Part shown: positions 5,682-52,440 of the stretch, piece by piece
How positions within the stretch are numbered: position 1 is the first letter of the stretch
Layout of the letters: the number at the start of each line of letters is the position of its first letter
Source of the DNA: Bacteroidales bacterium
GTDB taxonomy: Bacteria; Bacteroidota; Bacteroidia; Bacteroidales; P3
DNA: 64,000 bases
Direction: 5' to 3'
Assembly: GCA_017449525.1 (NCBI GenBank)
Contig: JAFTFL010000008.1
Location: 1,864-65,863 of the forward strand
Position numbers and translations under genes: made by a program
The notes under the pieces: model-generated
What the model was told of the DNA's origin: nothing
Seen by the model: the letters and a program-made list of their open reading frames with translations, nothing else
The model's database searches: none

Positions 5682-7019
5682 TTACTGGTTCTGGGGGGTA
5701 CGATTGAACGTCAAGGGTATTTCGCTCTGTTGGCCTGCGGCAATATTCACTGAGGTGCGAACGGTGTCGTAGCCTGGTAGGAGAACGGCCACGATGTGGG
5801 TGCCGACGAGGAACTGCGCAGAGAAATAGGGCGTGGTACCCACGCGTTTGCCGTCGATATAGAGGTCGGCACCCGACGGTTTTGAGGTTACGAGGAGGCT
5901 GCCATAGAGGGGCGTGGGGGCTTCGAGGGGTACGGTGATGTCGGGGCTGCCGGCTGGGATGTGCTTGGATGCCGAGGAGGGGCGGTGCCCATTCAGTTTG
6001 CATTCCACCAAGTAGGTGCCCGCCTCGAGGTTGTCTACCACACGACCTCGGCCGCGCAGCACGCCGTTAATCCATATCTCGGCGTTGTTGCCTACGGTGA
6101 AGGTTACGCGGGTGGAGTTGGTTACCAGTAGGGGGGAGAGGTCGGTGGTCTGCCCGTCGAACACGGTGAAAGTGGACTCGTAGGGCTTGTAGAGCGGCTT
6201 GATGATGCGCAGGGTGTGCTGCCCCGAGGGTATTCCTTCGGTAGTGAGGGGTGCCATGCCTTGGCGTTCGCCGTCCACGTAGACGTTGCCGCCATTCGCG
6301 GTCGTGCTGCCCACCTTCAGTGTGCCGTAGGCTGGCCGCAGCTTTATTGTTTTCTCCACTTTGTGCTTGGCGTTGTCCACCACCACCTTGCCTACCTCGG
6401 CATGGTGGTGGGGCGCCTCCACTCGGTAGTCGTAGCTACCGAAGCGCACGAATTTTTCTACTACGCCGTTGGCATCGGGTTCGAACACCGTGCCATCGAA
6501 GTGGACTAAGGCGTTGTGGGGTTGTACCTTGAAAACGACGAACTGTTGCCTGGTGGAGGGCATACGGTTGGCGAGGTTGTCATCAGTCTTGCCGCCTGCG
6601 GAGAGGCGCATGATGTAGGTGCGCGCCGACTGCAAGGGCGTGGGAAATTCGTAGTTGCGCAGCGTAAGATAATCCTTGTGGTGGATGGTCAAGCGGCGTG
6701 CTTTTGCAGGCAAGTACACCCACACTTCGCCCTCCTTCTGCACTGTCTTCCACACGCCGATGGTGCCTGCTTCGAAGTTCAGCCCCTGCAGCGTTGTCTC
6801 TACTTTGACCAAGGCGCACACCTCTCCGTTCTGGTCCAACTCTTGGGTAACGGAGGTGTTGGCGGTCTGGTCGCGCCCGTCAAGATAAAAGCGTGTAACG
6901 CTCAGTTCTTGGGCTGACAGGATGCCTGTGCATAGAAGCAACATGCAGGCAGTAGCCCATACGCGCCGCCCTCCTGCGGCGATGGATGGGCGGTGGTACA
7001 TGATGTATGGTGCTGCCAT
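5682..7019 (-). CDS. Secreted PEGA-repeat protein (paralogous N-terminal module shared with the upstream gene)
   Basis: Signal peptide. Several PEGA units, for example TSKPSGADLYIDGKRVGTTP...GTHIVAVLLPGYDT. The start lies 5 nt after the stop of the preceding gene. Confidence 0.85.
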   Translation of the reverse strand: MAAPYIMYHRPSIAAGGRRVWATACMLLLCTGILSAQELSVTRFYLDGRDQTANTSVTQELDQNGEVCALVKVETTLQGLNFEAGTIGVWKTVQKEGEVWVYLPAKARRLTIHHKDYLTLRNYEFPTPLQSARTYIMRLSAGGKTDDNLANRMPSTRQQFVVFKVQPHNALVHFDGTVFEPDANGVVEKFVRFGSYDYRVEAPHHHAEVGKVVVDNAKHKVEKTIKLRPAYGTLKVGSTTANGGNVYVDGERQGMAPLTTEGIPSGQHTLRIIKPLYKPYESTFTVFDGQTTDLSPLLVTNSTRVTFTVGNNAEIWINGVLRGRGRVVDNLEAGTYLVECKLNGHRPSSASKHIPAGSPDITVPLEAPTPLYGSLLVTSKPSGADLYIDGKRVGTTPYFSAQFLVGTHIVAVLLPGYDTVRTSVNIAAGQQSEIPLTFNRTPQNQ

Positions 7020-7024: not shown

Positions 7025-10000
7025 TTAGTAAGAATAATAGTAGTTGTAGGAATTGGAGGTAGTGCTGGATTCGCTGTCCATTTCATCGGCCATAGCAGCG
7101 ATGCCCCAGATGGTGACCCCTATCAGACTACCAGTAAGGGCCCAGCCCAGTCCGATGCCGACGGTGGGAACGAGGTGCCCACCATAGACCATGCTACCGA
7201 GTGTGAGGTCCCACCAGGCGAATTCGCGGTTCTTGGCACCACTGAATCGGAGGCCAAAGTTGCCAGCAAAGTGGTTGCTGCCGTCGTAGGCGTGGCCAAA
7301 TCCCCCATAGAGTTGAAAGTCCAGCTTATTGCTTTCGCCCGTGAGGCGCAACACCAAATTAGCAGTCCCATTACGCATGCCGTCGCCAAAGTGAGCGGAA
7401 GCTTGGAATCCGATGTGCGCTGGGACATAGGCTACATTAAGGCCGAGCATGGGCATCTCCTTGTTGTCGTCGTACGCAATTGAGGTATTGACAAACCAGG
7501 AGGCGAAGTGTGTGCGTAGGCTCTTTGTGGCCCAGTCGCTGGAAAGGCCAGCAATGGGTAGCCATAGTGGTGCGGTGGGAATGCCCAGACCAATGCCGAC
7601 ATGAGGCATCACACCGCCCTTGAAGATGCTCATGCCCGCATTGATATCGAATAGAGCTAAGTGATCCAGCACGTCCTCTTTCCAACAGAGGCGGATGCCA
7701 AGGTCTGCACCCCAATGCGAACCAGTGTCGGTAGTGGAGGTGGTGTGCATGACAACGCCGTTGACAGTGATGTCGGTAGGGGAAGTGATTCCTAATGCGG
7801 GACCACCGTAAAGTTGGAAGTCCACGTTGGCATTTTTCCGTCCGAGGCGGAGCACAGGTCCCAGGGCACCGAAAAAGGAGGAGCCGTCTGTCAGCGCCAT
7901 GGTCGTAAGCCCTAACCTTCGAGGTACCCAGGCAAACTGGCCTCCAAACTGCCAGGCATGGGGGTCGAATGTTGGATAGCCAGCCGTAGCATTCAGGAAT
8001 AAATGTTGTTTGTTCTTGAAGTTATTGGTTCTTCTATTAGAGGTGTTGGTATTGCCGCTTGCAGTGGGTTGGGTGAACTTGATGGTTTTGGTGAACGTAT
8101 TTGTAGTCACGGTGACAGTGGCGGTGCGCGCCAATTTGCCTTGGTTGCCAGTGTAGGTGATGGAGAATCCATCGGTAGTACGTTTGACGGCGAGCCAGTT
8201 GGCATCGCTTCTTGCGGTGAATGAGTCCGAGGCATTTACGCGGAAGGTGGCTGTCCCTTCGGCCGAGGTCAGCGTCATTGTGCTGTTGACTATCTGATTG
8301 GCTACATTGTAAACAAATAGCCAGTTGGTTGGGTAGATATAGACAGAGGTGCTATATATCTTTTTGCCTTCCACCCACAATTCGATGCGGTAGGAGCCAG
8401 CGGTGTAGTTTGATTGGGTGGCGTTGCCCCACCCACTGACGACCACATTATGGTTTGGGCCAGGCTGGACGTAGATTGTGTTAGAGTAGCTGTAGCCAGC
8501 AGGAGAACTGCTGCCCACCTTCAGTGTGCCATCGGGGTTGTAAATCTTGACGTAGACAATTACCTCTTTAGAGGTGTTGCATAGGCCGTCGTAGTAGATT
8601 GTGGGTTTTATATAACGCATCTCGTTTGCTTTCAGTGGACTGCCAGCACCAGTAAGCACCTTGCCGTCCTCAGCTGTATTACGGAATTCAACCCGATTTA
8701 CTCGCATATAGCCCTGCGAGGCGTAGCGCGACTCTTCGACTTTCATAGTGATGTTGTAGGTTTGGCTGCTGCCTTCTGCCACGGTGAATGTACCGCTGTA
8801 GTCTTCATAGCCCGAGGCGGTGGCGCGCACGTTGTGCTGGCCGAGCGATAGTTGCGCGGTGCTTCCTGTGATGACCTGTCCGTCCACGTAGATGTTGGCC
8901 GAGGGCGCATTGCAGTTGAACGTTACGGTGACGGTGTTCTTCAGTTCGGCTGCCACCTCGGAAGTCTTGCCCTCCTCCACCGTTACCGTTCGTGAGAAAG
9001 TGCCATAGCCGTTGCGGCTGAGTTCCAAGCGGTGTGTGCCAATGAGTACGCGCGACAGCTGTAGCGGGGTCTCACCCACAGCGGTGCCGTCCAACTTCAC
9101 TTGAGCCATAGGGGGAGTGGAGGTGATGACCACCTTGCCATAGATTGGGGTAGGAGAGGGCAGGTCGATGGTGCGGCCATTCATGGCAGGGGAGACGGTG
9201 AGCGTCTTCTTTGCAGGGCGGTGGGCGGTGCGCTGCACCTCCACATTCAGTGCCCCGCTGGCGAAGTTGTCAGTTACGCTGCCTGTGCCCCTTCGGCTTC
9301 CATTGATGAAGATGGCATCGCCTTCGGCCGCTTTGAGGATGAGCCGCGCAAAGTCGGCTCGTAGCGTGGGGGCTACGACGGTGGTCTGCTCGTCATGCAC
9401 GGTGATGGTGGTGTCGAAGGGGGCATACAGCTCCTTGATGAGCTTTAGGTTATGTCTACCCGAGAGGATGCCGCTCAGCACTTTCGGCGCGGTGCCCTGC
9501 TGCGCGTTGTCCAGCACGATAGTAGCACCCGAACTCGAAGAGCCTTTGATTTCGATGTTGCCGAAGTTGGGCTTGAGGCGTATGTCCCTTATCACTTTGT
9601 CGTGGCTCACTGTGATTTTGCCTGCATTGGAGTGGTACATGGCGCGTTCCACTCTGTAGTCGTAGGTGCCCGGAGCCATCAGTTTGCTGGTGAATTCCCC
9701 ATTGGTGCCTATCAGGGGCTTGTTGTCAAAGGTTACGACGGCATCAGTGGGCGACACCTTAAATACTACGAACTGCCCCTGATCTTCCTCCTCAACAAAC
9801 ACATGTATAGTGGCAGAAGTGAGTTCCATAATGTAGGTGCGGGCAGACTCCAACTTAATGGGGAACTCGTAGTTGCGTAGGGTGCCAGCCTGCTGGTGCT
9901 GGATGGTGATGCGCCGTGCTCTATGCGGCAGATACACCCACACTTCGCCTGTTTTCTGCTCTGTCTTCCACACGCCGATGGTGCCTGCATCGAAGGTGAG

Positions 10001-10189
10001 CCCTTGCAGTGTGGTTTGCACCTTGACGAGTGCACACACCTCTCCGTTCTGGTCCAGCTCTTGGGTAACGGAGGTGTTGGCGGTCTGGTCGCGCTCGTCA
10101 AGGTAGAAGGCTTTGACGGAGAGTTGGCTCTGCGCAAAGGCTGCGGTGGAGAAGACCAGGGCGAGTAGTAGGGGCAATATTCTCTTCAT
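7025..10189 (-). CDS. Large secreted PEGA-repeat protein with a BACON-like domain and a Gly-rich hydrophobic C-terminal domain
   Basis: Signal peptide MKRILPLLLALVFSTAAFAQ. At least 5 PEGA units (for example TSTPPMAQVKLDGTAVGETP...GTHRLELSRNGYGT). BACON-like segment FRVNASDSFTARSDANWLAVKR...ARTATVTV. The last ~320 aa are internally duplicated. Confidence 0.85.
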   Translation of the reverse strand: MKRILPLLLALVFSTAAFAQSQLSVKAFYLDERDQTANTSVTQELDQNGEVCALVKVQTTLQGLTFDAGTIGVWKTEQKTGEVWVYLPHRARRITIQHQQAGTLRNYEFPIKLESARTYIMELTSATIHVFVEEEDQGQFVVFKVSPTDAVVTFDNKPLIGTNGEFTSKLMAPGTYDYRVERAMYHSNAGKITVSHDKVIRDIRLKPNFGNIEIKGSSSSGATIVLDNAQQGTAPKVLSGILSGRHNLKLIKELYAPFDTTITVHDEQTTVVAPTLRADFARLILKAAEGDAIFINGSRRGTGSVTDNFASGALNVEVQRTAHRPAKKTLTVSPAMNGRTIDLPSPTPIYGKVVITSTPPMAQVKLDGTAVGETPLQLSRVLIGTHRLELSRNGYGTFSRTVTVEEGKTSEVAAELKNTVTVTFNCNAPSANIYVDGQVITGSTAQLSLGQHNVRATASGYEDYSGTFTVAEGSSQTYNITMKVEESRYASQGYMRVNRVEFRNTAEDGKVLTGAGSPLKANEMRYIKPTIYYDGLCNTSKEVIVYVKIYNPDGTLKVGSSSPAGYSYSNTIYVQPGPNHNVVVSGWGNATQSNYTAGSYRIELWVEGKKIYSTSVYIYPTNWLFVYNVANQIVNSTMTLTSAEGTATFRVNASDSFTARSDANWLAVKRTTDGFSITYTGNQGKLARTATVTVTTNTFTKTIKFTQPTASGNTNTSNRRTNNFKNKQHLFLNATAGYPTFDPHAWQFGGQFAWVPRRLGLTTMALTDGSSFFGALGPVLRLGRKNANVDFQLYGGPALGITSPTDITVNGVVMHTTSTTDTGSHWGADLGIRLCWKEDVLDHLALFDINAGMSIFKGGVMPHVGIGLGIPTAPLWLPIAGLSSDWATKSLRTHFASWFVNTSIAYDDNKEMPMLGLNVAYVPAHIGFQASAHFGDGMRNGTANLVLRLTGESNKLDFQLYGGFGHAYDGSNHFAGNFGLRFSGAKNREFAWWDLTLGSMVYGGHLVPTVGIGLGWALTGSLIGVTIWGIAAMADEMDSESSTTSNSYNYYYSY

Positions 10190-11774: not shown

Positions 11775-13568
11775 TCAGAAGTCTTCCATGCCGTATACGC
11801 GGTTCAACTCTGGGTCGGGCTTATCCTGCCAGGTGCGCACCTTGATAACTGGGCTGTCGGGGTCGTTGAGGTCCACCTGCAGGTATAGGTAGCCTGAGTC
11901 TCCGTAGTGCGTAGAGTAGTAGTCCTGCTTGATTTGTATACCGTAGGTCTCGCCCGTGTGCTGGCCGCCCTTCTTCACGTCGTTGCTGCCGAAGCGTATG
12001 TTCACATATTCATTCTTCGTGAAAGTGTGCTTCAGTCGGGTGATATACTGGTCTTTGGTGAGCTGAGTACGTTCTACATAGCGGTTGGCTCCGTAGCGGT
12101 TGTCGTTGACATTCGCACGGATTATGATGCGCCCCATAATGATGACGGCATGCTGGTCGAAGATGGATTCGATGTAGTCCGCACGCTTGAGGGCGAAGGC
12201 CGTCTTGTAGTTTTCGAGAAAACTGATGAGCACGGCGCGTGCTTCGGGTGGCCATGACCCCTTGTTCAGTATGTCGGCGGTGGCTGCCTCGTCGAGGCCG
12301 AAGGTAACGTTCTCCACTTTGCCCTCCTTATTGAAGGTGAACACCACGTTCTCCACAAAACTCTTGCGAGCTGCCTGCTTATAGGAGAAAGACATGGGGA
12401 CACTGCGTGCCACGAGTCGATCGCCATAGGTGGTAACGGTGATTTTGTTAAAGTCAAGCACGCGTACGCTACCGTTGTGCATGAGGGTGTCGAAGATGCC
12501 GCGTCCCTCGCGCGTAAAGTAGTGGTGTGCATCGGCAGGGCGGTGAGCGCGTATGGCCTTCACTATTTCGCCTACGGTGTTGGTTACGTGGTCGACAGCC
12601 TTTCCTGATGGGGCATCGAGCCGTACATCGGTGGTGGCACGACGTGGGGTGGCAGGAGTTTCCGGCGTGGTGCGCTGAGTCAGATGCACTTCGGTATAGG
12701 CCGAGGTGAGGGCGCGGCTTTGAACGGTCTCCAGCACCTCTTTCACCTCGCTGTCGAGCACTTTGGCTTGTCCCCTGTATACATATTCATATTTCAGCTT
12801 GACCACCTTGGGGGTGTAGCCCGAGGGCAGTTCGAGCACACCTCGTCCGTCGCGAGCGCTGTAGATGTTGGTCCAATCGCGTCCGTCGAAATAGGTGTAG
12901 TCCAAACTGCGAACGGGTTGTCCGCGGAAGGTGAAGTGCAGGTCAACATCCGAACCGCTGACAAGCCCCGTGTTCACTTTGATGTCGGCAAACACAGCGT
13001 TCATTCGGGCCGGTATGTAGGTAGACAACTGGTGCCCATCGCCATCTTTCACCTCGTTGGGGTACTGCATGGTTTTGAGCAGTGTATAAGCCCAGTAGTA
13101 GTCCTTCAGTGCTTCGTCCACCTTGCCTTCGCCCTCGGCCTTGACGGCCAGCCTGAGGTACTCAAGTATCTTCAGCCGTCGTCCTTCGTATATGCGCCCG
13201 ATCTCGCTGCGCTTGATATAACGACCCACGATGGCATCTGGTTCATTCTTGATGATGATGCGCTCGGTGTTGGTGAGCGTAGCCTCTGAGAAAGTCTTGA
13301 CTTTGGAGCGGTAGTAGCTCTGGTAATCAAAAGAGCCGTTGCTGTTGCGCTCATCGTCAATGATGGTGGTGGAGTCGGCCACGCGCATTGATATCTGACT
13401 GATGAGGTCGGCCAACGCCCGTTTATCGGCCTCTTCGTTGGTGGCTCCGGTGCCTTTACCACTGATGTAGACGCTACGGTTGGACACGATGTCGTCCCAA
13501 CTCTGCGCGCAGAGTGGGACGACCGAGGTCAGCAGCATGATGATGAGGGTGATGCTGGTGCGATTCAT
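11775..13568 (-). CDS. Secreted protein with an LPP20-like N-terminal domain (tentative), otherwise unknown
   Basis: Start set at MNRTSITLIIMLLTSVVPLCAQ. The N-terminus YISGKGTGATNEEADKRALADLISQISMRV resembles the LPP20 lipoprotein family pattern. Confidence 0.8.
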   Translation of the reverse strand: MNRTSITLIIMLLTSVVPLCAQSWDDIVSNRSVYISGKGTGATNEEADKRALADLISQISMRVADSTTIIDDERNSNGSFDYQSYYRSKVKTFSEATLTNTERIIIKNEPDAIVGRYIKRSEIGRIYEGRRLKILEYLRLAVKAEGEGKVDEALKDYYWAYTLLKTMQYPNEVKDGDGHQLSTYIPARMNAVFADIKVNTGLVSGSDVDLHFTFRGQPVRSLDYTYFDGRDWTNIYSARDGRGVLELPSGYTPKVVKLKYEYVYRGQAKVLDSEVKEVLETVQSRALTSAYTEVHLTQRTTPETPATPRRATTDVRLDAPSGKAVDHVTNTVGEIVKAIRAHRPADAHHYFTREGRGIFDTLMHNGSVRVLDFNKITVTTYGDRLVARSVPMSFSYKQAARKSFVENVVFTFNKEGKVENVTFGLDEAATADILNKGSWPPEARAVLISFLENYKTAFALKRADYIESIFDQHAVIIMGRIIIRANVNDNRYGANRYVERTQLTKDQYITRLKHTFTKNEYVNIRFGSNDVKKGGQHTGETYGIQIKQDYYSTHYGDSGYLYLQVDLNDPDSPVIKVRTWQDKPDPELNRVYGMEDF

Positions 13569-15301: not shown

Positions 15302-15936
15302 ATGTTGTTTGTGTTAAATATGTAAGTGTATGTTCTAATGCATAGAGTATTTGTGTCTACACTTAGATTATCTAAGTATAAGACGAATTATGTCTCCTAC
15401 GATGTGTTCATTTTCTGCTCTCCTTTCTATCCACCTTACATGGATGTTACTTGTTATACAATAGATAAACTAACCAAGTAGAGAGGCCTTGACGCGCATT
15501 TTACAACTTCAACAGTAGAGAGGCCAGTTCTACAATCGTACCCCTACAGTGTCGTTGGTTTTCGAATAATCACCCATCGCATTAACTCGATGGACAATCT
15601 TTTTGTGGTTTAAACCGAGTGAAAATGTACGGAATAATATATAACTATCCAAATATTTTTCACAGATTTGGTGAAGGTGTAAGTGATATTCATAGTATCA
15701 ATGAAATAATGAGAATACAAGAGGATGGCATAGCCTATACTTACATAGGTAGCTCGGTTTGCGAACATATACAAAATAAGGAAAAGCAGTATTAAGCCAG
15801 TTATGTGGAGCCCAAATTCTCTCTAATTTGCCCGTTAAGTCTGCCCATATTCTTCAGTATATTGGCGATTTTAATGGAAAGATTATTTAGAAAGAGAGGG
15901 AAAGTGGTCCAATGGATGTACGCCGTGGGGTGCGAT

Positions 15937-16197
15937 GCTGTACGGGAGCGCGCTCGATGCTGTAGGGGATCTGCCCCTGTGCTGTACGGCATGGAAACGA
16001 TTCATGCGGTTGTGCCACACTGAAGTAGGTGGATGCTATGTACTGTGCCGTACGGCTAAGCGTCGGCTACTGTACGGCAGGGGGACTGTGTTCGGAAGAA
16101 AAGGGGGGAAGAGGGTGAGGTGCGGATAGGGCAGTGTAGTGGGGTGGATGCACCGCAGCGGTGGCGTGCTTTGCCGTTTTTCCACAGTGCAAAGGTA
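15937..16197 (-). repeat. Promoter-linked GTACGGC palindrome array, copy B (TACCTTTG box at 16190-16197 plus 4 palindromes)
   Basis: GTAC cores lie 115, 137, 203 and 247 nt downstream of the box. No convincing ORF is present. Confidence 0.6.
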
Positions 16198-16247
16198 CGA
16201 AAAAACTGCTGTTCGAACAGTGGTTGCGGCTCGGTGGGGTGCAAAAT

Positions 16248-17231: not shown

Positions 17232-19010
17232 TTACTTCTGAAGGATGACGCTGCCGTGGTCGTCGACAATCTGCTTGTAGAACCAGTTGGGGTACAGCGG
17301 TTGCATGGGCGACTTGCAAGCCCCAGTCTCGGTGGTTTCAAACTGGCCGTTTTTCACGTGCTTGATGTTGCCGTCGATGTATTTGACGAGCAGGAAGTGG
17401 TCGAGGTTGGTCCACTCGGTCATCATCTGGCGTGCGGCCTCGTTGGAGAATCTGTTCAAGCGCGCGGTGAGCTCAGCATCACTGCTGATGGATTTCACGG
17501 CTTGGTCGTTTTGGCTGACGCTGTTGATGAAGCCCTTTTCCAGCCTGCTCTGCACGGCTTGGAGGTCGACAATCATGCTGTCGTAGCGGTTGTAGCAGAA
17601 GTTGGTTACACGGTTGAAGAGCCAGAAGGCGCTGGTGGGGCTGTACTCGGTCATCGAGCCGTTGCCCTCGCGGAAGCATTCGGGTATGTCGGTGATGCCG
17701 CAGTACATGGGGCAGTAGACGGTGCTATAGGTGTCGTCCACGCCGAACCATAGGATGCCGCCCACCTTGGAGGGGAGCCAGTTGCGGCACTGAGCCACAA
17801 AGCTGAAGCCAGTCTGCTGGGTGCTGGTGGCACGTTCGTGGACATAGTCCTTGCCGGCGTATTGCCAAGTCATGGGCCGCCAGCGGTAGGGGCAATGGAA
17901 TGGGCCAGCGCCCACATCTTGCGTCATGTCCATGGCGGTGCCCTCGTAGTGGTCGCGCATGAGGTTCATCACTTCGTGGAGGTCCACCTTGTGGTCGGGC
18001 TTTATCCAAAGCGGGAGGCGATTGCCCAAGTTGTGTCCCATGGCGTAGTCTTCGTACTGCTGCATGTCGGCGTTGACGCGGCGGAACATGGCGTAGACGC
18101 GAGCGTCGCAGAAGCGTGCCTGCCCGAAGTCGAGGGGCGCGTAGGCATCGGCAAAGCTGAAGTCGGCGTCAGAGCCGGTGTACCAGCCGTGCATGCGGGC
18201 AGGGGCGGTAACGTCGGCAGCGTAGACACATTCCACTTCGGGTTCGAAGATGTAGTCCATGTGCTTGCTGCTGATGGCAGTGTGGAGGCCTTGGCCTTTG
18301 GCCTTGTTCCACTTGGCGGGTTCTTGTGGGAAGGTGGTGATGCGCGCTTGGTTGGCATGGCCACACACGTAGCCATCGGGCACGCGGCGTGCTACCCACA
18401 CGGCCCCCGGCTTGAAGCCTTTGTAGGCTTTGTTGAGCACGGGTTTGCCCTTCACGGTGTCGTACTTTGCAATGCCTTTACCGATGAAGTCCATCACCCA
18501 CACCTCGTTGGGGTCGCAGATGGAGAACGACTCGCCCTCCGATGCGTAACCGTAGGTGTCGGCAAGCTCCGTCATAACCTTGATGGCTTCGCGGGCTGTC
18601 TTGGCACGTTGCAAAGTGATGTAGATAAGGCTCCCATAGTCAATGCCCCCTTCGGGGTGCGCCCAAAGCTCTTGACGACCACCGTAGGTGGTTTCGCCGA
18701 TGGCGAGTTGGTGCTCATTCATGTTGCCCACCACGCTGTAGGTAGTGGCGACTTGGGGAATATCCATAAGATATTTGCCGCTGTCCCAGTCGTAGACTTT
18801 GAACATGGTACCAGCGGGGTACTGGGCAGCCCGACGGTAATAGAGCTCGCCGTAGAGCACGTGGGAGTCGGCTGCATAAGTAATCATGGTGGAACCGTCT
18901 TTGGTAGCACCCTTGGTGAACAGGAAGTTGGTACATGCTTGCACGTCGTGTGCAGCCATGAAGCACATGGCTACAAGCAGCGTGGCCACAAGTCGTTTTG
19001 CTGTTTTCAT
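17232..19010 (-). CDS. Secreted dipeptidase, peptidase family C69
   Basis: A signal peptide is followed by the nucleophile Cys in AHDVQACTNFLFTKGATKDGS. At 592 aa it fits Bacteroidales C69 dipeptidases. Confidence 0.85.
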   Translation of the reverse strand: MKTAKRLVATLLVAMCFMAAHDVQACTNFLFTKGATKDGSTMITYAADSHVLYGELYYRRAAQYPAGTMFKVYDWDSGKYLMDIPQVATTYSVVGNMNEHQLAIGETTYGGRQELWAHPEGGIDYGSLIYITLQRAKTAREAIKVMTELADTYGYASEGESFSICDPNEVWVMDFIGKGIAKYDTVKGKPVLNKAYKGFKPGAVWVARRVPDGYVCGHANQARITTFPQEPAKWNKAKGQGLHTAISSKHMDYIFEPEVECVYAADVTAPARMHGWYTGSDADFSFADAYAPLDFGQARFCDARVYAMFRRVNADMQQYEDYAMGHNLGNRLPLWIKPDHKVDLHEVMNLMRDHYEGTAMDMTQDVGAGPFHCPYRWRPMTWQYAGKDYVHERATSTQQTGFSFVAQCRNWLPSKVGGILWFGVDDTYSTVYCPMYCGITDIPECFREGNGSMTEYSPTSAFWLFNRVTNFCYNRYDSMIVDLQAVQSRLEKGFINSVSQNDQAVKSISSDAELTARLNRFSNEAARQMMTEWTNLDHFLLVKYIDGNIKHVKNGQFETTETGACKSPMQPLYPNWFYKQIVDDHGSVILQK

Positions 19011-19599
19011 GCTGTGTAGGATTGGAAAAAATGTAAAAGGGGGATTTGAATATCCATGGGGGAAAAGAGGCGGAGCCAGCAGTCAAGGGAACTCAGTTGA
19101 GGCTGAGTTTGATTTTGCGCCCATGCAACTTGAGGCGTTGCAGACAAGAGAAACGTGCGTAACGCTTCACGCGACGAATGACTTTGGCGGACGGCCTGAC
19201 ATCTTGGGGTGTTGTCTTGGTGGGTGAGAACTGCAGAAAGTCCTCCTCTGGGAACAGAAACTCGTAGTGTTGCATCATCCGCGCTCCTCTATGTGATTAC
19301 TTGACTTTTTTGGCTTGTCGAGTGCGCCCTGTGGGCATCTGCTCTCGAACAAAATCGTCAAAGAAACTGCAATGGCGTTCATTTATTGTACAGCACCACG
19401 CTTTTAACGTTCTGGGTGTCGTACGGCATGGGATGCAGAAAGCATGTTGATGGCGAGGAATAAAAGGGGCGTGCCACCGCGATAGGAAGCACAATGTACC
19501 ACGATATATCCATTCTATTCCCTGTAAAACAATGCTATAGCTCTGCTGACTATTCCCGAGATGAGAACGCGTTTTGACCGAACAGTGCTACCATTTCGT

Positions 19600-19900
19600 G
19601 CTCTTCCCTGTAGCGTGGCGATGCGTGGGGTGCTGAGAAGAGAGAGTCTCTTCCCTTGCACATACAGATGTGTTTTCCTTGTGCGTGCAGTTTCCTCCCC
19701 TTGCACAGCGATGCGTGGGGCGCTGAGAAGGGAGAGTCCCTTTCCTTGCACATACAGATGTGTTTTCCTTGTGCGTGCAGTTTCCTCCCCCTGCACAGCG
19801 ACGCGTGGGATGCTGAGACGGGAGAGTCTCTTCCCTTGCACATACAGATGTGTTTTCCTGGTGTGTGCAGTTTCCTCCCCCTTGCACAGCGATGTACGGG
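19600..19900. repeat. 90-bp tandem repeat, about 3.3 copies
   Basis: Units at 19621-19710, 19711-19800 and 19801-19890 are ~92-94% identical. Partial units flank them. Confidence 0.9.
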
Positions 19901-20031
19901 ATGTACGCAATATATGGTGTGGGGTGTGTATAATATAAGGTGTGAGGTGAGCAGAAAAAAAGGAGAGGGAAAACACCGCTGATGTTTTCCCTCTCTGAGT
20001 TGTTGATATGCTACAGAGCAGAGTGAGCAAT

Positions 20032-25730: not shown

Positions 25731-26819
25731 CTATCTAACGCGGAGGTTGCGCCCCACGCGCAGTATGGTGGTTTCTTTGATGCCGTTGAGTTGGCACAGT
25801 CGTTTCACGGTGGTGTGGTGCCGCGTTGCTATGCGGCTTAGGGTGTCGCCCTGCTTCACCTTGTAGTATTGTGTGCCGCTGCGCTGCGTGCTGCTGTTGC
25901 CCTTGCTCGACGAGGCTACTGCGCGACCCGACGAGCTGCCCACCTTGGCAAAGGAGCGGGGCGTGAGGCGGAGGGTCTCTTCGCGCAGGGTCTGGGTGCT
26001 GCAGTCGATGACGTTTTCGGGGTTGAGCGCGGCGCCCATGTAGCGCACCTCAAAGTGTAGATGGCTGCCATAGCTGCGCCCGGTGTTGCCACACAAACCG
26101 ATGGTCTGTCCAGCCCGTACGGTGTCGCCCACTTGAGCGTAGCGTTTCGACATGTGGGCGTAGTAGGTTTCGAGTCCATTGGTGTGGCGTATGACTATCA
26201 GGTTGCCGTACGACTTGTTCAGTACCGAGACGCGTACCACCCCGTCGAATGCGGCATAGATGGGTTCGCCCGTGGGCATGGCCAAGTCCACTCCATAGTG
26301 CCAGCGGCGGCGTCCGCGCGCTCCGAAGTGGGAGGTGGCGCGCGACAGGGAGGGCGTTGGGTAGGCAAACTCGTGCTTCAGCCTGTGGTTGACAAGGTGG
26401 AGCACTACGGTGTCGGTCGATTTCCACTTGTTGAGCTCTATCTTGGGATAGTGGATTACGTTGGGGTCAAAGCTGGCGTAGAGTATCTCGTCTTCACTCT
26501 CGGCACCGTCGTCATCAGGTGATTGGAATATGTTGCGCTCCGCTGGCTCGTCGGCCGCCGTTGTCAGTGGGGGGGGCGGGTCCATGAGGAAAGGGCGTTG
26601 GCTGAGCGACTGCTCTTTCTCTTGTGGGGTCTCCTTGGGGGAAACCACCAGACCCGAATATTCCTCGTCGGGGTAGACCACGTCCAGCTTATTGAGCTTG
26701 ATGACTGTCTGCCGCTCGTCCTGGGTCTGAGTCTTGTTTTTGTTTTGCGCCCAAGCCGTGGGGGCTGCCAGTAGCAGCAGTAGAAGAAGGCTGTGCGCTA
26801 TGTGGTTGGTTATCGTCAT
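25731..26819 (-). CDS. M23 family metallopeptidase with a C-terminal LysM domain
   Basis: Start set at [26 protein letters not shown]23 motifs [20 protein letters not shown] and GSHLHFEVR. LysM segment [14 protein letters not shown]. Confidence 0.9.
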
Positions 26820-26896
26820 GTGGTTTCGCGCATGTGGGGCAAGGCTGTCGACATGGCCGGGCGCCAAGCAGCGGCAGCAGTGTCCGTATGAAACTG

Positions 26897-26904
26897 CAAA
26901 GGTA
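26897..26904 (-). promoter_or_regulatory. -7 promoter box (TACCTTTG on the minus strand) for the M23-trmD-clpP-dut operon
   Basis: The plus strand reads CTGCAAAGGTACG, 78 nt upstream of the ATG at 26819. Confidence 0.6.
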
Positions 26905-27024
26905 CGTTTTTTTCGCGACACTGGGGCTTCCCCTGTTGCCTTTTTGCCCAACCTGTCGTGGCACAAGCCCTAAGTGGTCGCAGATAAAAATGAGATCTCC
27001 TGTTCACAATTCAAAAATAGTTCG

Positions 27025-27277
27025 TACCTTTGCAATTCCAAAACCGTTTTGGTGCATCTGAGCACGCAGTGTGATAAAGTAGGTTTTGTTGTCATTACAA
27101 ATTAACTTTTTGACATGGGTTTGGGGGTCAGTGCCGTACGGTGCCGACCCCTTTGCCTGTACAGCATGGTGTGTAGATTTGTTGAACGGCAGTGTGCCTC
27201 ATGTTGTTATGAGCATTACAAGCCGTACGGCTTCTGCTCCGAAGCCGTACGGCTATGGATGCCTGTGCCGTACGGCA
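27025..27277 (+). repeat. Promoter-linked GTACGGC palindrome array, copy C (orphan TACCTTTG box at 27025-27032 plus 4 palindromes)
   Basis: GTAC cores lie 104, 193, 215 and 238 nt downstream of the box. There is no plus-strand gene for the next 11 kb. Confidence 0.6.
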
Positions 27278-27332
27278 TAGGTGCGAAGGCTGTAGGGGTG
27301 ATGGGGCAGGTTGTGCTCGGGGGTGCGACGAG

Positions 27333-29624
27333 CTATTCGGCAGCAGAAGCCGTCGTCTGGTTGAGCAGGTGGGCGGCCGAGTCTACGGGCTGTAGCGTGT
27401 AGGGCAACAGGCGGCGCATGTCGGGGCTGAGGGTGCCGTAGTAGTTCTGCAAGGCGGCTATGCGGCTGCGCAGCTGTGTCTCTACCTCCGGGCGTGGTGC
27501 GCCGATGGTGCGGTAGGTGGCCGTGATGTGGGCTGCAGTGGGGAGAGAACCGATGTGGCCTATGGGGACGCGTGCCAGCAGACTGTCGAGCATGGTGCGG
27601 CAGCTGTCGGGCGCGTGGATGGCCATGGCGCGGGCGGCCTGCAGGGCGGCTTGGGCGTAGAGGTCGGTGAAGTGCTGCCCCACGTTGTCGGGCGCAGTGG
27701 CGCGGGTGCCACAGCGGAACGAGCCGTGAGTCAGCAGTCTATAGACTTCGCTGGGGAGTGGTTGGCGTGTGGTGTCGGGGCTGTAGCGCGCGGTGAAGAG
27801 CAGCGGCCGCAGGTGGGTTGATAGCTGCGGCGGACAGTAGTCCACGGCGTAGTCGGACACCTGCAGCGTGCGCCCAGCAGTGGTGCACAGGTCGATGAGT
27901 TCCCTTATGGAGTGCGCCACGGCATGGTAGGGCTGTTGCCAGGCGGCTGGCACGTCGAGCCCTTGACGGTGCAGCTGTGCAGCCAGCTGGGTGCGATACC
28001 AATCGGTTGCCAATAGGCTGATGTTCACTATCTGCACATCGCTTCGCACCCCCTCGACCTGCTGAATGTACCACAGCGGAAAGGTGTCGTTGTCGCCCAC
28101 GGTGAGCAGCACCGTTCTCTGGGGGCACTCCTCGAGGTGCGCACGCGCCACATCGCGCGCTGTGTAGCGGTGGGCGCGGTTGTGCGTAGGTAGGTTTTGT
28201 GCCCCCATCAGCAGGGGGATGCCCATGAGCAGCAGGGTGCAGGCTTGCCACCTGCTGCGCAGCCTGTTGCCGAGCGCCGTGGTGCCGATGCCCATCCACA
28301 GGCTGAAAGCATAGAAGGAGAGGACGTAGACATAGTCGCGCTCACGGGGTTCGACGGGGGGATGGTTCAGCACGAGTGCCAGCAGCAAACTCGAAGTAAG
28401 GAATAGTAGAAGGACCGCCCAAAAGTTGCGCCTGCTCATCGAGCGGTGGCTCAGCAGGCCTATGAGCCCCAACAGCAAGGGCAGCAGGAAGTAGGCCTGA
28501 CGACCCGACGCTGCGGGCTCGCCGGCCGGAGGGGTGGCACCGCTGCCCACCAGCAGGCGGTCTATTGGGGAGAGGCCGGTGATGAACTGGCCGTCCTGCA
28601 GCGAGCCGTAGCCTTGCCGGTGGTTGAAGCGGCCAGAGAAGTTCCACATGAAGTAGCGCAGGTACATGTAGCCTGCTTGGTAGGAGACAAAGTAGCGCAG
28701 GTTGGCGACAGGCTCGGTGCGCGACGTGAGGGGCTGCCCAGCCCAATAGGCATAGAGCTGCTCGTCGCCCTCGTGGTCGCGCCACAGGCGGGGATAGAGC
28801 GGGGCGTGCTCGTACTGCTCACGGCCGAGGTAGGCCTTCAGCCGCTGCGGAGTGGAGGGGTCGCCCTCGTTCAGCGGAGGATTGGCGGCGGCGCATATGG
28901 GGATCACGAGGTAGGTGCTGCATCCCAATAGCAGCAGCCCCACTCCCAGAGCCCACGTGCGCCACTCGGCACGGCTCACCCCTCCGCGGCCACGGCCGCA
29001 GAGGTAGAGCAGCAGCAGGGTCGGCACGCAAAGCAGCGGCAGCAGATGCACTCCGACCGAGAGCCCCAACAGCAAGGCCGTCAGCAGCAACCATCGGGAA
29101 CGGCCAGCCACGCGCGGTGCTCTGACCCACCGCATCATGCTCCACAGCACCGCTCCGGCCATGCAGACCGACAGGCTGTACACTTCGCTCTCCACCGCCG
29201 AGAACCACGCCGTGTCGCTCCAGGCAAAAGCGAGAGATGCCACAGCTCCTGCAGCCCATCGCACCACGGTCGGGGTGCGGCGAGGCGTCATCAGCTGCAC
29301 GATGCGGCACAGAAAGTAGGCTGCCCCACCTCCGGCCACAGCCGAAAGCAGGTTGCTCCACCACGCGGCGCGCTCGGCACTGCCAGCGAGGAGCATCAGC
29401 ACGTGAGCAAGAAGTGTGTAGAGGGGTGCACCCGACGGATGCCCCACTTGAAGCCACCGCGAGGTGGCGATGAACTCACCGCAGTCCCAAAAACTGGCGG
29501 TGGGCTCGAGAGTCAGTACGTAAGTGAGCCCTGCGACCAAGCCACAGAGGGCGGCCACAGCGCAGTCGGCACGGTGCCACAGCGGCGAAGGTCGCCGACG
29601 AGTGTTGCGGCATGCGGCCTCCAT
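27333..29624 (-). CDS. DUF2723 family polytopic membrane protein (putative glycosyltransferase-like)
   Basis: N-terminal LEPTASFWDCGEFIATSRWLQVGHPSGAPLY is the DUF2723 signature. About 12 TM segments precede a soluble C-terminal part. Confidence 0.8.
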   Translation of the reverse strand: MEAACRNTRRRPSPLWHRADCAVAALCGLVAGLTYVLTLEPTASFWDCGEFIATSRWLQVGHPSGAPLYTLLAHVLMLLAGSAERAAWWSNLLSAVAGGGAAYFLCRIVQLMTPRRTPTVVRWAAGAVASLAFAWSDTAWFSAVESEVYSLSVCMAGAVLWSMMRWVRAPRVAGRSRWLLLTALLLGLSVGVHLLPLLCVPTLLLLYLCGRGRGGVSRAEWRTWALGVGLLLLGCSTYLVIPICAAANPPLNEGDPSTPQRLKAYLGREQYEHAPLYPRLWRDHEGDEQLYAYWAGQPLTSRTEPVANLRYFVSYQAGYMYLRYFMWNFSGRFNHRQGYGSLQDGQFITGLSPIDRLLVGSGATPPAGEPAASGRQAYFLLPLLLGLIGLLSHRSMSRRNFWAVLLLFLTSSLLLALVLNHPPVEPRERDYVYVLSFYAFSLWMGIGTTALGNRLRSRWQACTLLLMGIPLLMGAQNLPTHNRAHRYTARDVARAHLEECPQRTVLLTVGDNDTFPLWYIQQVEGVRSDVQIVNISLLATDWYRTQLAAQLHRQGLDVPAAWQQPYHAVAHSIRELIDLCTTAGRTLQVSDYAVDYCPPQLSTHLRPLLFTARYSPDTTRQPLPSEVYRLLTHGSFRCGTRATAPDNVGQHFTDLYAQAALQAARAMAIHAPDSCRTMLDSLLARVPIGHIGSLPTAAHITATYRTIGAPRPEVETQLRSRIAALQNYYGTLSPDMRRLLPYTLQPVDSAAHLLNQTTASAAE

Positions 29625-37987: not shown

Positions 37988-38130
37988 GTGGTTCGTTGTT
38001 ATAGGTTGTACAAAGATAGCAAGCTCGTACGGTTCGAAATCTTCGGATCGCCTACAACAGCCTGTTTTCTGTACACCCGATTGAGTGCCACACTTAAAGT
38101 CTCATCCTCGGTGCCTACGGTTTCAAGGCG

Positions 38131-38138
38131 CAAAGGTA
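38131..38138 (-). promoter_or_regulatory. -7 promoter box (TACCTTTG on the minus strand) for the MFS gene
   Basis: The plus strand reads GCGCAAAGGTACG, 144 nt upstream of the ATG at 37987. Confidence 0.55.
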
Positions 38139-38247
38139 CGAATTTTTTGTGCACCTCGCCTCGCAGGGTGGGTGCACACTGCCTCGACAGGAGGGGCAAT
38201 AACCGCGCCTGTGCCCATGCAGATGCCCTACGGATGATGCCCCCTGT

Positions 38248-38498
38248 GTCGTACGGCACGTGCGCCGAAAGCCAACACTGTTAGGGCTCATGCCGTACGG
38301 CATTGTGTCCGCACAACAAGGTGTACCGCAGGAGGATAGTATGGAAACTCCTCCCGGGCCGTACGACGGCCGACCCCATGCCGTACGGCATCAGCATTCG
38401 TGCTCATGGTCTGCTTCAGTGAAAGGTGAGGAAACAAGGGGGTGGCCACACTGCGCCGTGCAGCGCACGGGTCGCGCCCCATTGGTGGTGCAAAGGTA
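38248..38498 (-). repeat. Promoter-linked GTACGGC palindrome array, copy D (TACCTTTG box at 38491-38498 plus 4 palindromes)
   Basis: GTAC cores lie 105, 127, 193 and 237 nt downstream of the box. Two copies of the 14-nt palindrome ATGCCGTACGGCAT are present. Confidence 0.6.
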
Positions 38499-38674
38499 CG
38501 AAAAAAAGCAGAGTTCTCAGCGGGAAAGTGTCAGCCCCTGTGGCGGCAGCCCGTTTCGCGCAGCACATTGCTCACCGCTCCACGCGCGCGAAACAATAAA
38601 AGGCTCTCAACGGCGTTACCGAGGCACGCTTTCGCAACGTGGCTCGTGTGCCCCGCTGCGTGGCATTGAAAAGC

Positions 38675-44203: not shown

Positions 44204-44290
44204 ATCAAGTACAGGGAGTCGTAGATAGTGCGGCTGCCAAGCCCACCATCCAAATACTCCGCACCACGGCTGACTGGCACCAGTCTCCTC

Positions 44291-44348
44291 TTTTACTGCA
44301 AGGCCGCTGCGCTGAAACAGCGCAGCGGCCTTGCAGTAAAAGTTTTTT
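44291..44348 (+). terminator. Very long perfect hairpin terminator
   Basis: 24-bp perfect stem TTTTACTGCAAGGCCGCTGCGCTG / CAGCGCAGCGGCCTTGCAGTAAAA with loop AAA, followed by a T7 run. Confidence 0.8.
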
Positions 44349-46424: not shown

Positions 46425-47972
46425 TTACTTGGCGTAATTGATAGCACGTGTTTCTCGGATGACCGTAACCTTAATCTGTCCGGGGTAGGTCATTTCGTTC
46501 TGAATCTGACGCGACAAGTCGTAGCTGAGCTTGGTAGCTTCCACGTCATTAATCTTGTCGGCACCCACAATCACACGCAACTCGCGGCCGGCTTGAATGG
46601 CATAGGTCTTCACCACGCCAGGGTAGGTCATGGCCATCTCCTCCAACTTGTTCAGGCGGTTGATGTAGGCCTCAACCACCTCGCGTCTGGCACCAGGACG
46701 GGCACCGCTGATAGCATCGCACACCTGAATAATAGGAGCAATGAGGCTTGTCATCTCAACCTCATCGTGGTGAGCACCAATGGCGTTGCATACATCGGCA
46801 TGTTCCTTATACTTTTCGGCTAGTTTCATACCCAAAATAGCGTGTGGCAGCTCGGGCTCATTATCTGGCACCTTGCCTATGTCGTGCAACAAGCCAGCGC
46901 GCTTAGCCAGCTTCGGATTGAGTCCTAACTCTGAGGCCATAGTGGCCGCAAGATTTGCCACTTCGCGAGAGTGCTGTAGCAGATTTTGTCCATACGACGA
47001 GCGGAACTTCATCCGACCAACCATACGTGTCAACTCATGATGCATGTTGAGGATGCCCAAGTCGATGCAGGTTCGTTTGCCGACCTCAATAATCTCCTGC
47101 TCAATCTGTTTACGCGTCTTGGCTACCACTTCCTCGATACGAGCGGGGTGAATACGGCCGTCCGTAACCAACTTGTGGAGCGAAAGGCGTGCAATCTCAC
47201 GACGAATGGGGTCGAAACCTGACAGGATAATGGCATCGGGCGAATCGTCAATAATGACTTCTACGCCAGTGAGAGCCTCCAACGTTCTGATATTGCGACC
47301 TTCACGACCGATAATGCGACCCTTGACTTCCTCGTTCTCTAAATTAAAAACTGACACCGTATTCTCTATAGCATGCTCGGTAGCAGTGCGCTGAATGGAC
47401 TGGATTACAATCTTTTTTGCTTGCTCATTGGCTGTAATCTTAGCTTCCTCTACAATATCCATAATGCTACTTGAAGCCTCAGCCTTAGCCTCGTCCTTCA
47501 TCATCTCAATGAGCTGCCTTTTAGCCTCCTCAGCACTGAGATTGGCTATATGTTCCAACTTGTGTACACTTTCTTGATAGATTTTCTCAACCTCAGCCTG
47601 CCTCTTGTGCAATACCTCAATCTGGTTATTAAGATTTTCGCTGGCATTCTTGAGGTCATTATTCTTCTTCTGAAGTTCGGAAACTTGCTGGTTCAAACTT
47701 TGTTCGCGCTGTTTCAATTTGCGCTCTGCCCCTTGCATCTTGCTGTTGCGCTCTGCGATATCCTTATCACATTCGCCCTTCATTCGCATGCACTCCTCTT
47801 TGGCTTGGAGCACCTTCTCTTTTTTAATAACCTCGCCTCTCTCTTCTGCATCCTTCAATACCTGCTGGCTTTTAGCGAGCAATTTGTTCTTCAAAACTGA
47901 AGTGGCGAGCCATATACCGATGCCTCCACCAACCAATAGCGCAATAGCTGCAATAATAACTGATAGTAACAT
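46425..47972 (-). CDS. rny: Ribonuclease Y
   Basis: N-terminal TM helix, coiled coil, KH domain ([12 protein letters not shown]) and HD domain (HSREVA...LLHDIGK). Confidence 0.95.
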
Positions 47973-48146
47973 GTGATTAGTTCATTTATGAGGAACTTGC
48001 CGATCAGACCAGACCATCTTACAAAACCTACACTCGACCCTCAAGAGTTGTGGTAAACTCTATCAAAATAGGATTTGAGTGCCGGGTGTCTCAATTATAC
48101 AATCTACCCACCCATGAGCTTAATCGGTCTGTAAATAATGTTGAGT

Positions 48147-48452
48147 TTACAAACTGTTTTGAGCCGGGTGTAGGTATGAGTCTAAGACCGAATCAATACT
48201 ATTTAGTTTATCTATTAACGTAGTATCCTTATATTTCAAGTTCGATTGTATCTTCAATAGCTCGGTAATTTTGCTGAGGGCAACCATACTGAGCAAGTCC
48301 TGGTTGTCATTGTAACTATAATGCTGTCCGTAAAGTTTTGCCTGCGCATTTATCATAATAGCAGCCTCACGCAAATGTTGCTCATCCTCACTACCAATTG
48401 TCAGCCGATAGTTGCGTCCTAAAATATTTACCGTAACAGCCTGTCCACTCAT
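48147..48452 (-). CDS. zapA: Cell division protein ZapA
   Basis: 101 aa with VNILGRNYRLTIGSEDEQHLREAA..IN. Confidence 0.85.
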   Translation of the reverse strand: MSGQAVTVNILGRNYRLTIGSEDEQHLREAAIMINAQAKLYGQHYSYNDNQDLLSMVALSKITELLKIQSNLKYKDTTLIDKLNSIDSVLDSYLHPAQNSL

Positions 48453-48467
48453 CTACTTTTACCTTTT

Positions 48468-48764
48468 TTACTCATGCCTATTCAGAAGATCAAGGCACTT
48501 GTCAATGCTACGAATCATCTGATTGATTCTAAGTTTTATCTCTGTTGAATCGCCCTTTTGAATCAGCGTGTTCCTCAGTTTTACAATATTGTTTTGTTCT
48601 TTTTCTCGATTATATTCTGATGTTTTATTTTTAAGTTCTTCCTGTAAATTCTCCTTTTCCTCTGTCAGTCGCCAAATCTGCTTCTTGAGTGAGATATTCT
48701 CATTGATGAGTTGTCTTACCTTGAACTCAACACCTGTCAGTATAGTTTCATAGTCAAGCATCAC
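48468..48764 (-). CDS. Coiled-coil protein upstream of zapA, function unknown
   Basis: 98 aa with heptad-like Glu/Lys/Leu composition. Conserved position directly upstream of zapA. Confidence 0.6.
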   Translation of the reverse strand: MMLDYETILTGVEFKVRQLINENISLKKQIWRLTEEKENLQEELKNKTSEYNREKEQNNIVKLRNTLIQKGDSTEIKLRINQMIRSIDKCLDLLNRHE

Positions 48765-48790
48765 AGCTCATCATCTATAACGTTCTACTG

Positions 48791-52405: not shown

Positions 52406-52440
52406 CAAAAAAAAGGATAACTAACAAAATAATTCTTGCT

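Follow-up and report, generated by a model that had tools for sequence, protein, structure and literature searches.

What is a strong promoter doing in front of a 300-bp intergenic gap with no gene behind it? The question is raised by a stretch of 64,000 nucleotides (hereafter, the window) from an uncultured Bacteroidales bacterium, a chromosome segment of about 57% GC that comes from ruminant (rumen) gut metagenomes (ENA ERZ28653770 scaffold_20). The original prediction, made from the letters of the window alone, had described a site near position 27,025 as an orphan strong promoter followed by palindromes with a GTACGGC core, and had proposed it as a candidate small RNA (sRNA) or a novel repeat element. 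Our results speak for the repeat element. The site is one copy (copy C) of an oriented family; at least six copies occur in ~85 kb of one strain, which take in the window, 10 kb to its right (locus L243) and 6 kb to its left (locus L244). Each copy is an intergenic element of ~300 bp in which a strong promoter is followed by a ~180-200-bp array of six to eight GCCGTACGGC-type palindromes kept on a strict 22-bp register, and a relative has a counterpart built from another palindrome. In our view the element falls outside every described family, and arrays of intergenic palindromic repeats are, as a kind, already known.

We propose that the element would be best explained as a DNA-level array, similar to the repetitive extragenic palindromic (REP) sequences and their clusters (BIME), standing behind a promoter and made of sites for a protein that co-evolves with them. 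This proposal is tentative, the leading candidate rather than a probable one, and its rivals are weighed below.

A family of phased palindrome arrays

Copy C occupies a 513-bp gap between a TMEM260-like gene and an M23 peptidase gene, and its parts are as follows:

27023 to 27034, plus strand: promoter box CGTACCTTTGCA, with the Bacteroidota -7 element TAnnTTTG and an A/T run upstream
27038 to 27052, plus strand: short dyad or 5' hairpin CCAAAACCGTTTTGG, just past the predicted start
27129 to 27169, plus strand: first palindrome (P1) GTGCCGTACGGTGC, core at 27136, register 0; degenerate P2 CTGTACAG at 27157-27164, register about +22
27190 to 27213, plus strand: central 66-nt gap with another semi-conserved core (CAGTGTGCC ... 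TGTTGT)
27218 to 27303, plus strand: P3 AGCCGTACGGCT, P4 AGCCGTACGGCT and P5 TGCCGTACGGCA, cores at 27225, 27247 and 27270; degenerate P6, GTAG, at 27292

The perfect box had been placed at 27025-27032, which holds for the 8-mer TACCTTTG (12 occurrences in the window against 1.06 expected), while the complete 12-mer CGTACCTTTGCA spans 27023-27034. The four GTAC cores lie exactly where they had been reported, 104, 193, 215 and 238 nt past the box (27136, 27225, 27247 and 27270), and to these we add a degenerate fifth core in CTGTACAG at 27157-27164 (+127) and a sixth, GTAG, at 27292 (+260). Counted from the first core, P3 to P6 stand at +89, +111, +134 and +156. The statement that no plus-strand gene follows until 38675 is correct apart from one probably spurious gene call of 173 aa.

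The 12-mer CGTACCTTTGCA, together with its A/T run, also precedes a tRNA cluster (58321-58332, plus strand), the tRNA-Asp/tmRNA genes (62436-62447, minus strand), the M23 peptidase gene (26895-26906, minus strand) and a major facilitator superfamily (MFS) gene (38129-38140, minus strand). Judged from these contexts, it is probably a canonical sigma-A promoter and the strong promoter type of the source organism, the strongest local form of the TAnnTTTG -7 element, from which transcription would start here as well. An orphan strong promoter at copy C, with a box identical to those of tRNA and tmRNA genes, is therefore plausible. Short dyads comparable to that of copy C directly follow the box in copies A, B and F.

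Two other copies had been listed previously, and their core spacings, 105/127/193/237 nt for the one at 38498 (copy D) and 115/137/203/247 nt for the one at 16197 (copy B), proved exact. A profile of copies B, C and D (nhmmer) recovered copy D with E = 5e-58, found no further full copy in the window and detected copies A, E and F outside it, each on the matching strand. With a profile made from all six copies, A, C, D, E and F were recovered at E = 1e-31 to 1e-37, copy B lying outside every locus searched with that profile. The same profile run over 1.8 Mb of other loci yielded nothing comparable apart from GTACGGC microsatellites. The copies in or touching the window, with one box that belongs to their surroundings, are:

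34 to 45, minus strand: promoter box of copy A, with its array immediately outside the window on the left (L244, 5861-5665, minus strand)
15911 to 16199, minus strand: copy B; box at 16188-16199, cores at 16075, 16053, 15987, 15965 (CTAC), 15943 and 15921
38222 to 38500, minus strand: copy D; box at 38489-38500, extra unit at 38451-38468 (register -66), cores at 38386, 38364, 38298, 38278 (degenerate), 38254 and 38232
38129 to 38140, minus strand: box proximal to the MFS transporter gene, following copy D directly, which gives the order promoter, array, promoter, gene

Copy E (L243, 9406-9205, minus strand) lies ~320-480 nt past the window end and immediately follows a tRNA-Lys gene that has its own promoter, and copy F has TATCTTTG as its box. 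The six copies, about one per 14 kb, are thus all oriented alike relative to what stands on their 5' side: a CGTACCTTTGCA-type box identical to the tRNA/tmRNA ones in four, the TATCTTTG box in one and the tRNA-Lys gene in one. Extrapolated from six copies in ~85 kb, a genome would hold a few hundred of them. On the 3' side, copies A, D and E are directly upstream of a second promoter box and a same-orientation gene (in copy A the second box serves an acetyl-CoA hydrolase gene), and copy B is upstream of an outer membrane protein (OMP) gene. Copies C and F have no gene downstream and point at a convergent gene's 3' end, and the 3' end of copy F is at a strong hairpin, the terminator hairpin of that convergent gene. 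The box that comes next after A and after D is oriented directly, not inverted.

Measured from the first core of each of the six copies, the cores fall at 0, +22, +88/89, +110/111, +132-134 and +152-156, the only exception being the degenerate P2 of copy C, which the automatic search placed at +20; weaker units occur at -66 and +176 in some copies. Two units, a 66-nt gap and four more units form a layout common to all six arrays, which together contain 26 well-defined units. The gap carries another semi-conserved sequence, CAGTGTG...TGTTGTG, and the +66 position is CAnnTGTTGTG-like in A, C, D and E. About 145 nt could be aligned across the six copies with MAFFT using single-nucleotide gaps only, and indels are almost absent. 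As had been noted from the first three copies, the sequence between the motifs is poorly conserved: linker identity is 0.31, against 0.27 for random sequence, and core identity is 0.67. Since the linkers are near-random while the cores are conserved, the cores and their spacing are the only visible constraints, and a spacing of 22 bp corresponds to about two helical turns.

The unit consensus, CCnrTGCCGTACGGCAynGG, is a dyad of ~20 bp with a base profile that is mirror-symmetric to +-10 nt. Its outer CC/GG positions reflect a symmetric preference with no complementarity within individual units, and positions 2-5 show a slight excess of complementarity. At the centre, the first and last bases of the supposed GUAC tetraloop (G...C) are complementary in 23-24 of the 26 units, which indicates that the dyad continues through the centre, as in duplex operators. 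Within otherwise conserved units the core variants GTGC, GCAC, GTAG and CTAC are tolerated. In the window, CCGTACGG occurs 11 times against 0.71 expected, a number reached by none of 100 shuffles. A weight matrix built from the array units gave 15 matches of at least 14 bits, and although non-coding DNA makes up 19% of the window, it holds 14 of them (binomial p = 1.3e-9). The motif is thus far from equally frequent in coding DNA, and equal frequency there is what the original prediction had named as speaking against it.

Comparative evidence comes from one relative. Among the closest homologues of the flanking 763-aa TMEM260-like protein, which are 45-48% identical to it, we compared seven related loci (five distinct places), and six of the seven have no arrays. 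The exception is the closest one, L238, 22 kb of a Bacteroidales metagenome-assembled genome (GCA_017470685.1) from the same ruminant study, whose protein is 48% identical. These 22 kb contain no CCGTACGG arrays; they contain instead another palindrome, TGCGACnnGTCGCA, at 22/44-nt spacing in five intergenic regions:

L238 region 274-576: units at 274, 318, 362 and 406
L238 region 7250-7600: units at 7450 and 7472
L238 region 9172-9230: units at 9172 and 9216
L238 region 12301-12380, directly after the orthologous gene: units at 12301, 12323, 12345 and 12367
L238 region 17449-17530: units at 17449, 17471 and 17515

Two of these arrays (276-576 and 7329-7439) are recognised as young tandem repeats by Tandem Repeats Finder (TRF), for example with a 44-nt period, 6.8 copies and an 84% match. 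A nearby same-strand promoter box reads into the array in one case only, and one array sits between a box and a start codon. In five other related loci neither palindrome forms arrays. A palindrome that changes by species while its geometry is kept is, by analogy with REP families, a hallmark of a site that co-evolves with a protein.

Strand behaviour and the nature of the array

The most telling evidence lies in the arm mismatches, read first on the promoter strand. On that strand, copies C, E and F have 13 mismatches of the G-U type and 1 of the A-C type, whereas A, B and D have 9 of the A-C type and 3 of the G-U type. Scored on the plus strand of the window, all copies agree, with 22 G-T against 4 A-C mismatches. 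The GC skew of the linkers on that strand (+0.01 to +0.35) is positive in six of six copies, whichever way the promoter points, and the unit hairpins of the plus strand are at least as stable in every copy. Summed over its six units, copy B gives -9.2 kcal/mol for the sense and -23.8 for the antisense strand; copy A gives -26.1 and -37.7, and in C, E and F the order is reversed. Mismatches, skew and hairpin energy therefore follow the chromosome strand and not the promoter, which means that no purifying selection on the sense RNA hairpins is visible. Such a pattern agrees with an element at the DNA level that the mutation bias of the replication strands has shaped, or with one that needs hairpins on one DNA strand.

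These observations bear directly on the sRNA that had been proposed, with stems of 4-5 bp and GUAC tetraloops. In its fuller form, the copies would encode paralogous small non-coding RNAs of ~250-300 nt, for example protein sponges analogous to CsrB/RsmZ, in which six to eight GC stems with GUAC loops, or long palindrome duplexes, would titrate an RNA-binding protein. We regard this as possible, though doubtful. In favour of such a family, each of the six copies has a strong consensus promoter or tRNA gene 5' of it in the same orientation; the short 5' hairpins past the predicted start, the strong hairpin at the end of copy F and the lack of an open reading frame (ORF) in arrays whose 22-nt period is no multiple of three speak for it as well. 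Copies C and D also fold better than shuffled sequences (z = -4.4 and z = -2.2). Their minimum free energy folds disagree, however, pairing different palindromes, and RNAalifold produced palindrome-to-palindrome helices only, with no covariation (term +0.42), so we rejected a conserved RNA architecture. Copies B, C and D have no terminator-like site after them. A search against Rfam 15 at gathering thresholds matched tRNA and tmRNA only, and in E-value mode added chance miRNA matches well below gathering. In A and B the antisense hairpins are far stronger than the sense ones, copies A, B and D tolerate A-C mismatches on their sense strand, one element per ~14 kb is far denser than known sRNA families, and in the relative a same-strand box is near only one array. 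The sRNA is thus weakened, and the other suggestion made for the site, a dyad of 10-14 bp for a putative dimeric regulator, fits better than RNA stems. A small conserved ORF was also considered and rejected: an ATG 20 nt before P1 is present in C and D but lacking in the other copies, and three does not divide the 22-nt period.

A selfish repeat, a minisatellite of the BrickBuilt type or a repeat similar to MITEs (the miniature transposable elements with inverted repeats), would account for the array as a 22-nt tandem repeat with a mobile promoter that spread intergenically and is now decaying, with no function for the host. Such a repeat has a precedent in Porphyromonas gingivalis, where BrickBuilt is an intergenic 23-nt tandem repeat with predicted stem-loops and promoter activity (PMC4596501), and it agrees with the clearly young tandem arrays of the relative and with signs of homogenisation within arrays: in copy B an A replaces the G just past the core (CCGTACAG) in five of six units, and three of the five units of copy E have GTGC cores. 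Neutral decay, on the other hand, would not leave random linkers between kept cores at a kept spacing, nor the same unit number and 66-nt gap in six of six copies. TRF detected no array at B, C or D, and the copies are flanked by neither terminal inverted repeats nor target duplications, with no inverted box copy at their 3' ends; a MITE proper was rejected for its missing terminal inverted repeats. We consider a selfish origin distinctly unlikely. Still less likely, in our view, is a role in cis for the next gene, as its 5' leader or an upstream regulatory region (a riboregulator, an attenuator or an upstream activating sequence for the proximal promoter). Copies A, D and E do stand right before a second box and a same-orientation gene, B stands before the OMP gene, and one array of the relative sits between box and start codon, but C and F run towards the 3' end of a convergent gene and have no gene downstream, the downstream genes are functionally unrelated, and the last unit and the next box are anywhere from ~30 to 100 nt apart. 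Clusters of targets for a restriction-modification system or an orphan methylase, suggested earlier for GTAC and CGTACG, or palindromes arisen by chance, seem to us extremely improbable. GTAC and CGTACG are typical type II targets, as is the core ACGCGT of the relative, but a bare target of 4-6 bp leaves the conservation of 12-20 bp unexplained, GTGC, GCAC, GTAG and CTAC cores are tolerated, and GTAC alone occurs at 229 sites in the window; chance is excluded by the CCGTACGG count and by the non-coding bias of the units. An invertible promoter between palindromes, as in Mpi-type inverted repeats with CGTACG, was rejected because a unit upstream of the box is present in copy A alone.

We therefore return to the DNA-level array. 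We infer that the constrained object is the DNA and not the sense RNA, and that the array is a multivalent platform of protein sites. A cognate sequence-specific protein would bind the units and co-evolve with its site. It could be a symmetric dimer that binds cooperatively on one face of the duplex, or an enzyme of the REP/RAYT type that would act on single-stranded hairpins of one DNA strand; full dyad symmetry combined with two-turn phasing favours the dimer on duplex DNA. Because the array is always just downstream of a strong promoter with no terminator, we further suggest, as a conjecture that we ourselves hold to be somewhat unlikely, that the occupied array may be a barrier or roadblock that gates read-through from its promoter. 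In A, B, D and E the transcripts so gated would run into the next sense gene; in C and F they would be antisense to the convergent gene. A bolder and more unlikely picture is a genome-wide recognition system of this clade in which the arrays and a cognate protein would co-evolve, with hundreds of cassettes of strong promoter and operator array that would work as switchable barriers to read-through into neighbouring genes, sense or antisense, or with arrays that would be processed into 22-nt hairpins, each species having its own palindrome on a conserved 22-bp geometry.

Several observations weigh against an array of protein sites. No binding protein was identified, and the called genes and ORFs scanned in ~107 kb (~85 kb plus the 22 kb of the relative) included no match to Y1_Tnp/RAYT. 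A promoter or tRNA gene on the 5' side of six of six arrays is expected of a transcription unit and is not needed by a model that involves DNA only. The units do not have the canonical REP tag, and their 2 + gap + 4 layout is fixed, whereas canonical REPs vary per cluster. Moreover, replication-associated mutation bias alone can explain the strand asymmetry of the mismatches, the excess over the strongest local skew being marginal (p = 0.04); for that reason we make no claim of selection for plus-strand hairpins, and the asymmetry is to be read as missing purifying selection at the RNA level and not as proof of a function at the DNA level. Finally, the basis is one genome and one relative, the assemblies of the source species being 100% identical to one another.

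If arrays do gate read-through, they would add a global module of a new kind to gene regulation in this phylum, which is poorly understood. That the relative keeps the 22-bp geometry with a different palindrome points to a protein partner co-evolving with the site, and comparative genomics or pull-down could identify it. In practice, arrays like these yield spurious ORFs, may break assemblies and can pass for sRNA genes.

Isolated units, surroundings and wider searches

Besides the arrays, the window has isolated units on either side of promoters and in intergenic regions:

60 to 77, no strand assigned: CCACGCCGTACGGGCTGC, ~20 nt upstream of the copy A box, 13.9 bits
179 to 196, no strand assigned: CTCTGTCGTACGGCACAG, a few nt past a TATCTTTG box facing an Rnf/Nqr-family gene, an operator-like position, 16.1 bits
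19414 to 19431, no strand assigned: GGGTGTCGTACGGCATGG, in a 1-kb intergenic region between ribonucleotide reductase and C69 peptidase genes, 15.0 bits
58062 to 58079, no strand assigned: CTCCGCCGTACGCCATAA, ~260 nt upstream of the tRNA-cluster promoter, 16.0 bits
63943 to 63960, no strand assigned: AGGTGCCGTACGGGACAA, upstream of the tRNA-Lys gene that has copy E on its 3' side

The positions of the units at 179-196 and 60-77 are consistent with a function as operators. The third unit shares its intergenic region (19011-20031) with a 90-nt tandem repeat (19618-19894; 3.1 copies, 91% match, 45-nt sub-period) downstream of the ribonucleotide reductase gene and its terminator, which may be another type of phased hairpin repeat carried by the source genome. 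About 10 nt upstream of the copy B box there is a perfect 12-bp palindrome, CTGTTCGAACAG (16209-16220), and at the equivalent place upstream of the copy C box there is CTGTTCACAA; the two may be part of a promoter upstream element, or another operator. Copy B is separated from the OMP gene by an AT-rich stretch of 600 bp (15302-15900, GC ~0.42) with no convincing ORF.

The genes around copy C are housekeeping genes on the minus strand: TMEM260-like/DUF2723 (27333-29624), LptE, M23/LysM peptidase, TrmD and ClpP. One more promoter box is found close to the element:

26895 to 26906, minus strand: divergent box of the M23/LysM peptidase gene (called start 26819), outside the element, forming a 12-bp inverted pair with the copy C box

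The longest ORF of that peptidase (25731-26966) starts at TTG 26966, upstream of its own box, and the start at 26819 given in the public assembly agrees with the promoter position. Farther away, 299 nt are directly repeated with 79% identity (6609-6907 and 9827-10125) in two adjoining PEGA-domain genes, suggesting that the two have paralogous domains. Directly 3' of an NTP-transferase gene, a perfect inverted repeat of 25 bp around a 3-nt loop (CTTTTACTGCAAGGCCGCTGCGCTG / CAGCGCAGCGGCCTTGCAGTAAAAG, 44290-44342) is probably a terminator. The 6 kb from 47000 to 53000 have a GC content of 0.39-0.48, yet they carry housekeeping genes (RNase Y, RibBA, RecQ).

Pattern scans beyond these loci gave candidates that we rejected. 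In a genome collection, the matches listed for CGTACCTTTGCA-N85-115-TGCCGTAC were tRNA-Ser variable arms (Prevotella, Arcicella) and chance coding matches. The former are common in these genera (L003-L117, e.g. L010, L028 and L004), where CGTACCTTTGCA is followed ~88 nt on by TGCCGTAC: a strong promoter precedes a tRNA-Ser gene with the variable arm TGCCGTACGGG...CCCGTACCG, unrelated to the element. A metagenome scan for three phased half-motifs returned chance matches, eukaryote-like GTACGGC microsatellites and one unrelated GC-rich contig (L188). In that contig, ~13 tandem 22-nt units GTGCCGTACGGCGGCYCACCC (985-1290) come right after the stop codon of a 182-aa ORF that looks YaeQ-like by eye; the 22-nt period was imposed by the search pattern, so no relationship is implied. 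A scan of viral contigs found nothing related, and a literature search for the motif found nothing relevant.

Comparison with known systems

In Escherichia coli, BIMEs have a density comparable in magnitude with that described here, one array per ~14 kb. REP/BIME sequences of E. coli, Pseudomonas and Stenotrophomonas are likewise short GC-rich palindromes, extragenic, clustered and regularly spaced (PMC3733652, PMC6006769). They are species-specific in sequence, as the palindrome is here, where it differs in the relative (TGCGACnnGTCGCA), and they too can be placed between convergent genes and transcribed. REP families co-evolve with RAYT, and TnpA-Y1 genes of Bacteroidetes have been reported to be flanked by atypical hairpin repeats (PMC6006769, PMC3733652). 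The differences are equally definite. The GT[AG]G or CGTC foot tag is absent here; GTAC is central, and the unit, a 12-bp core in a dyad of ~20 bp, is shorter, fully symmetric and has no polarity. The strict 22-bp phase and fixed 2 + gap + 4 layout contrast with the variable head-to-head and tail-to-tail dimers of REPs, an orientation that cannot even be defined for symmetric units. A promoter heads each array, and no RAYT gene is found among the genes of ~107 kb.

BrickBuilt of P. gingivalis belongs to the same order, Bacteroidales, and resembles the element in being always intergenic, with a period of 22-23 nt, predicted stem-loops and associated promoter activity (PMC4596501). Its 5' terminal repeat, AAGACCTTTGCA, even has ACCTTTGCA in common with the box described here. 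BrickBuilt is a contiguous tandem repeat of high identity, in 1-23 copies, with a leader and a tail that end in IS5-like terminal inverted repeats (PMC4596501). Compared by description and not by repeat sequence, the present element differs in its random linkers, its fixed unit number, its escape from detection by TRF and its lack of terminal inverted repeats. The contiguous tandem repeat, which the arrays of the source genome do not have, is found in the relative's arrays at 276-576 and 7329-7439.

Among RNAs, the closest resemblance is to the sponge sRNAs CsrB/CsrC and RsmY/RsmZ, which have their own promoter, a length of a few hundred nt, many copies of a short motif that can be presented on hairpins, and several paralogues per genome. 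The copies described here share the own promoter (as read from sequence), the length, the repeated motif and the paralogues. They differ in that the motif is a full palindrome instead of a loop motif, not every copy keeps its hairpins on the transcribed strand, there is no terminator, the copies are far more numerous and the phase is rigid.

Iterons and centromere-like arrays (the 22-bp iterons of R6K and pPS10, parC of R1, sopC of F) are single plasmid loci beside a rep or par gene. They are similar in having repeats of protein sites, putative in our case, phased at about two helical turns, in two blocks with a gap and near a promoter, with spacings here of 22, 88, 110, 132 and 154 bp. Here, however, the chromosome has six copies, whose contexts are unrelated and which adjoin no cognate gene. 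CRISPR arrays also have a leader with a promoter and partly palindromic repeats that alternate with non-conserved spacers, but the total period here is 22 nt, against repeats of ~23-55 nt, and "spacers" of 6-10 nt are too short for guides. The unit number is fixed, many small arrays occur per genome, and the neighbours are housekeeping genes, with no cas genes nearby.

Taken together, four features are missing from the known repeat families: full dyad symmetry, a rigid two-turn phase, a fixed composite architecture and a promoter heading every copy. With them, the element would be the first REP/BIME-like system of palindromic units described in uncultured rumen Bacteroidales.

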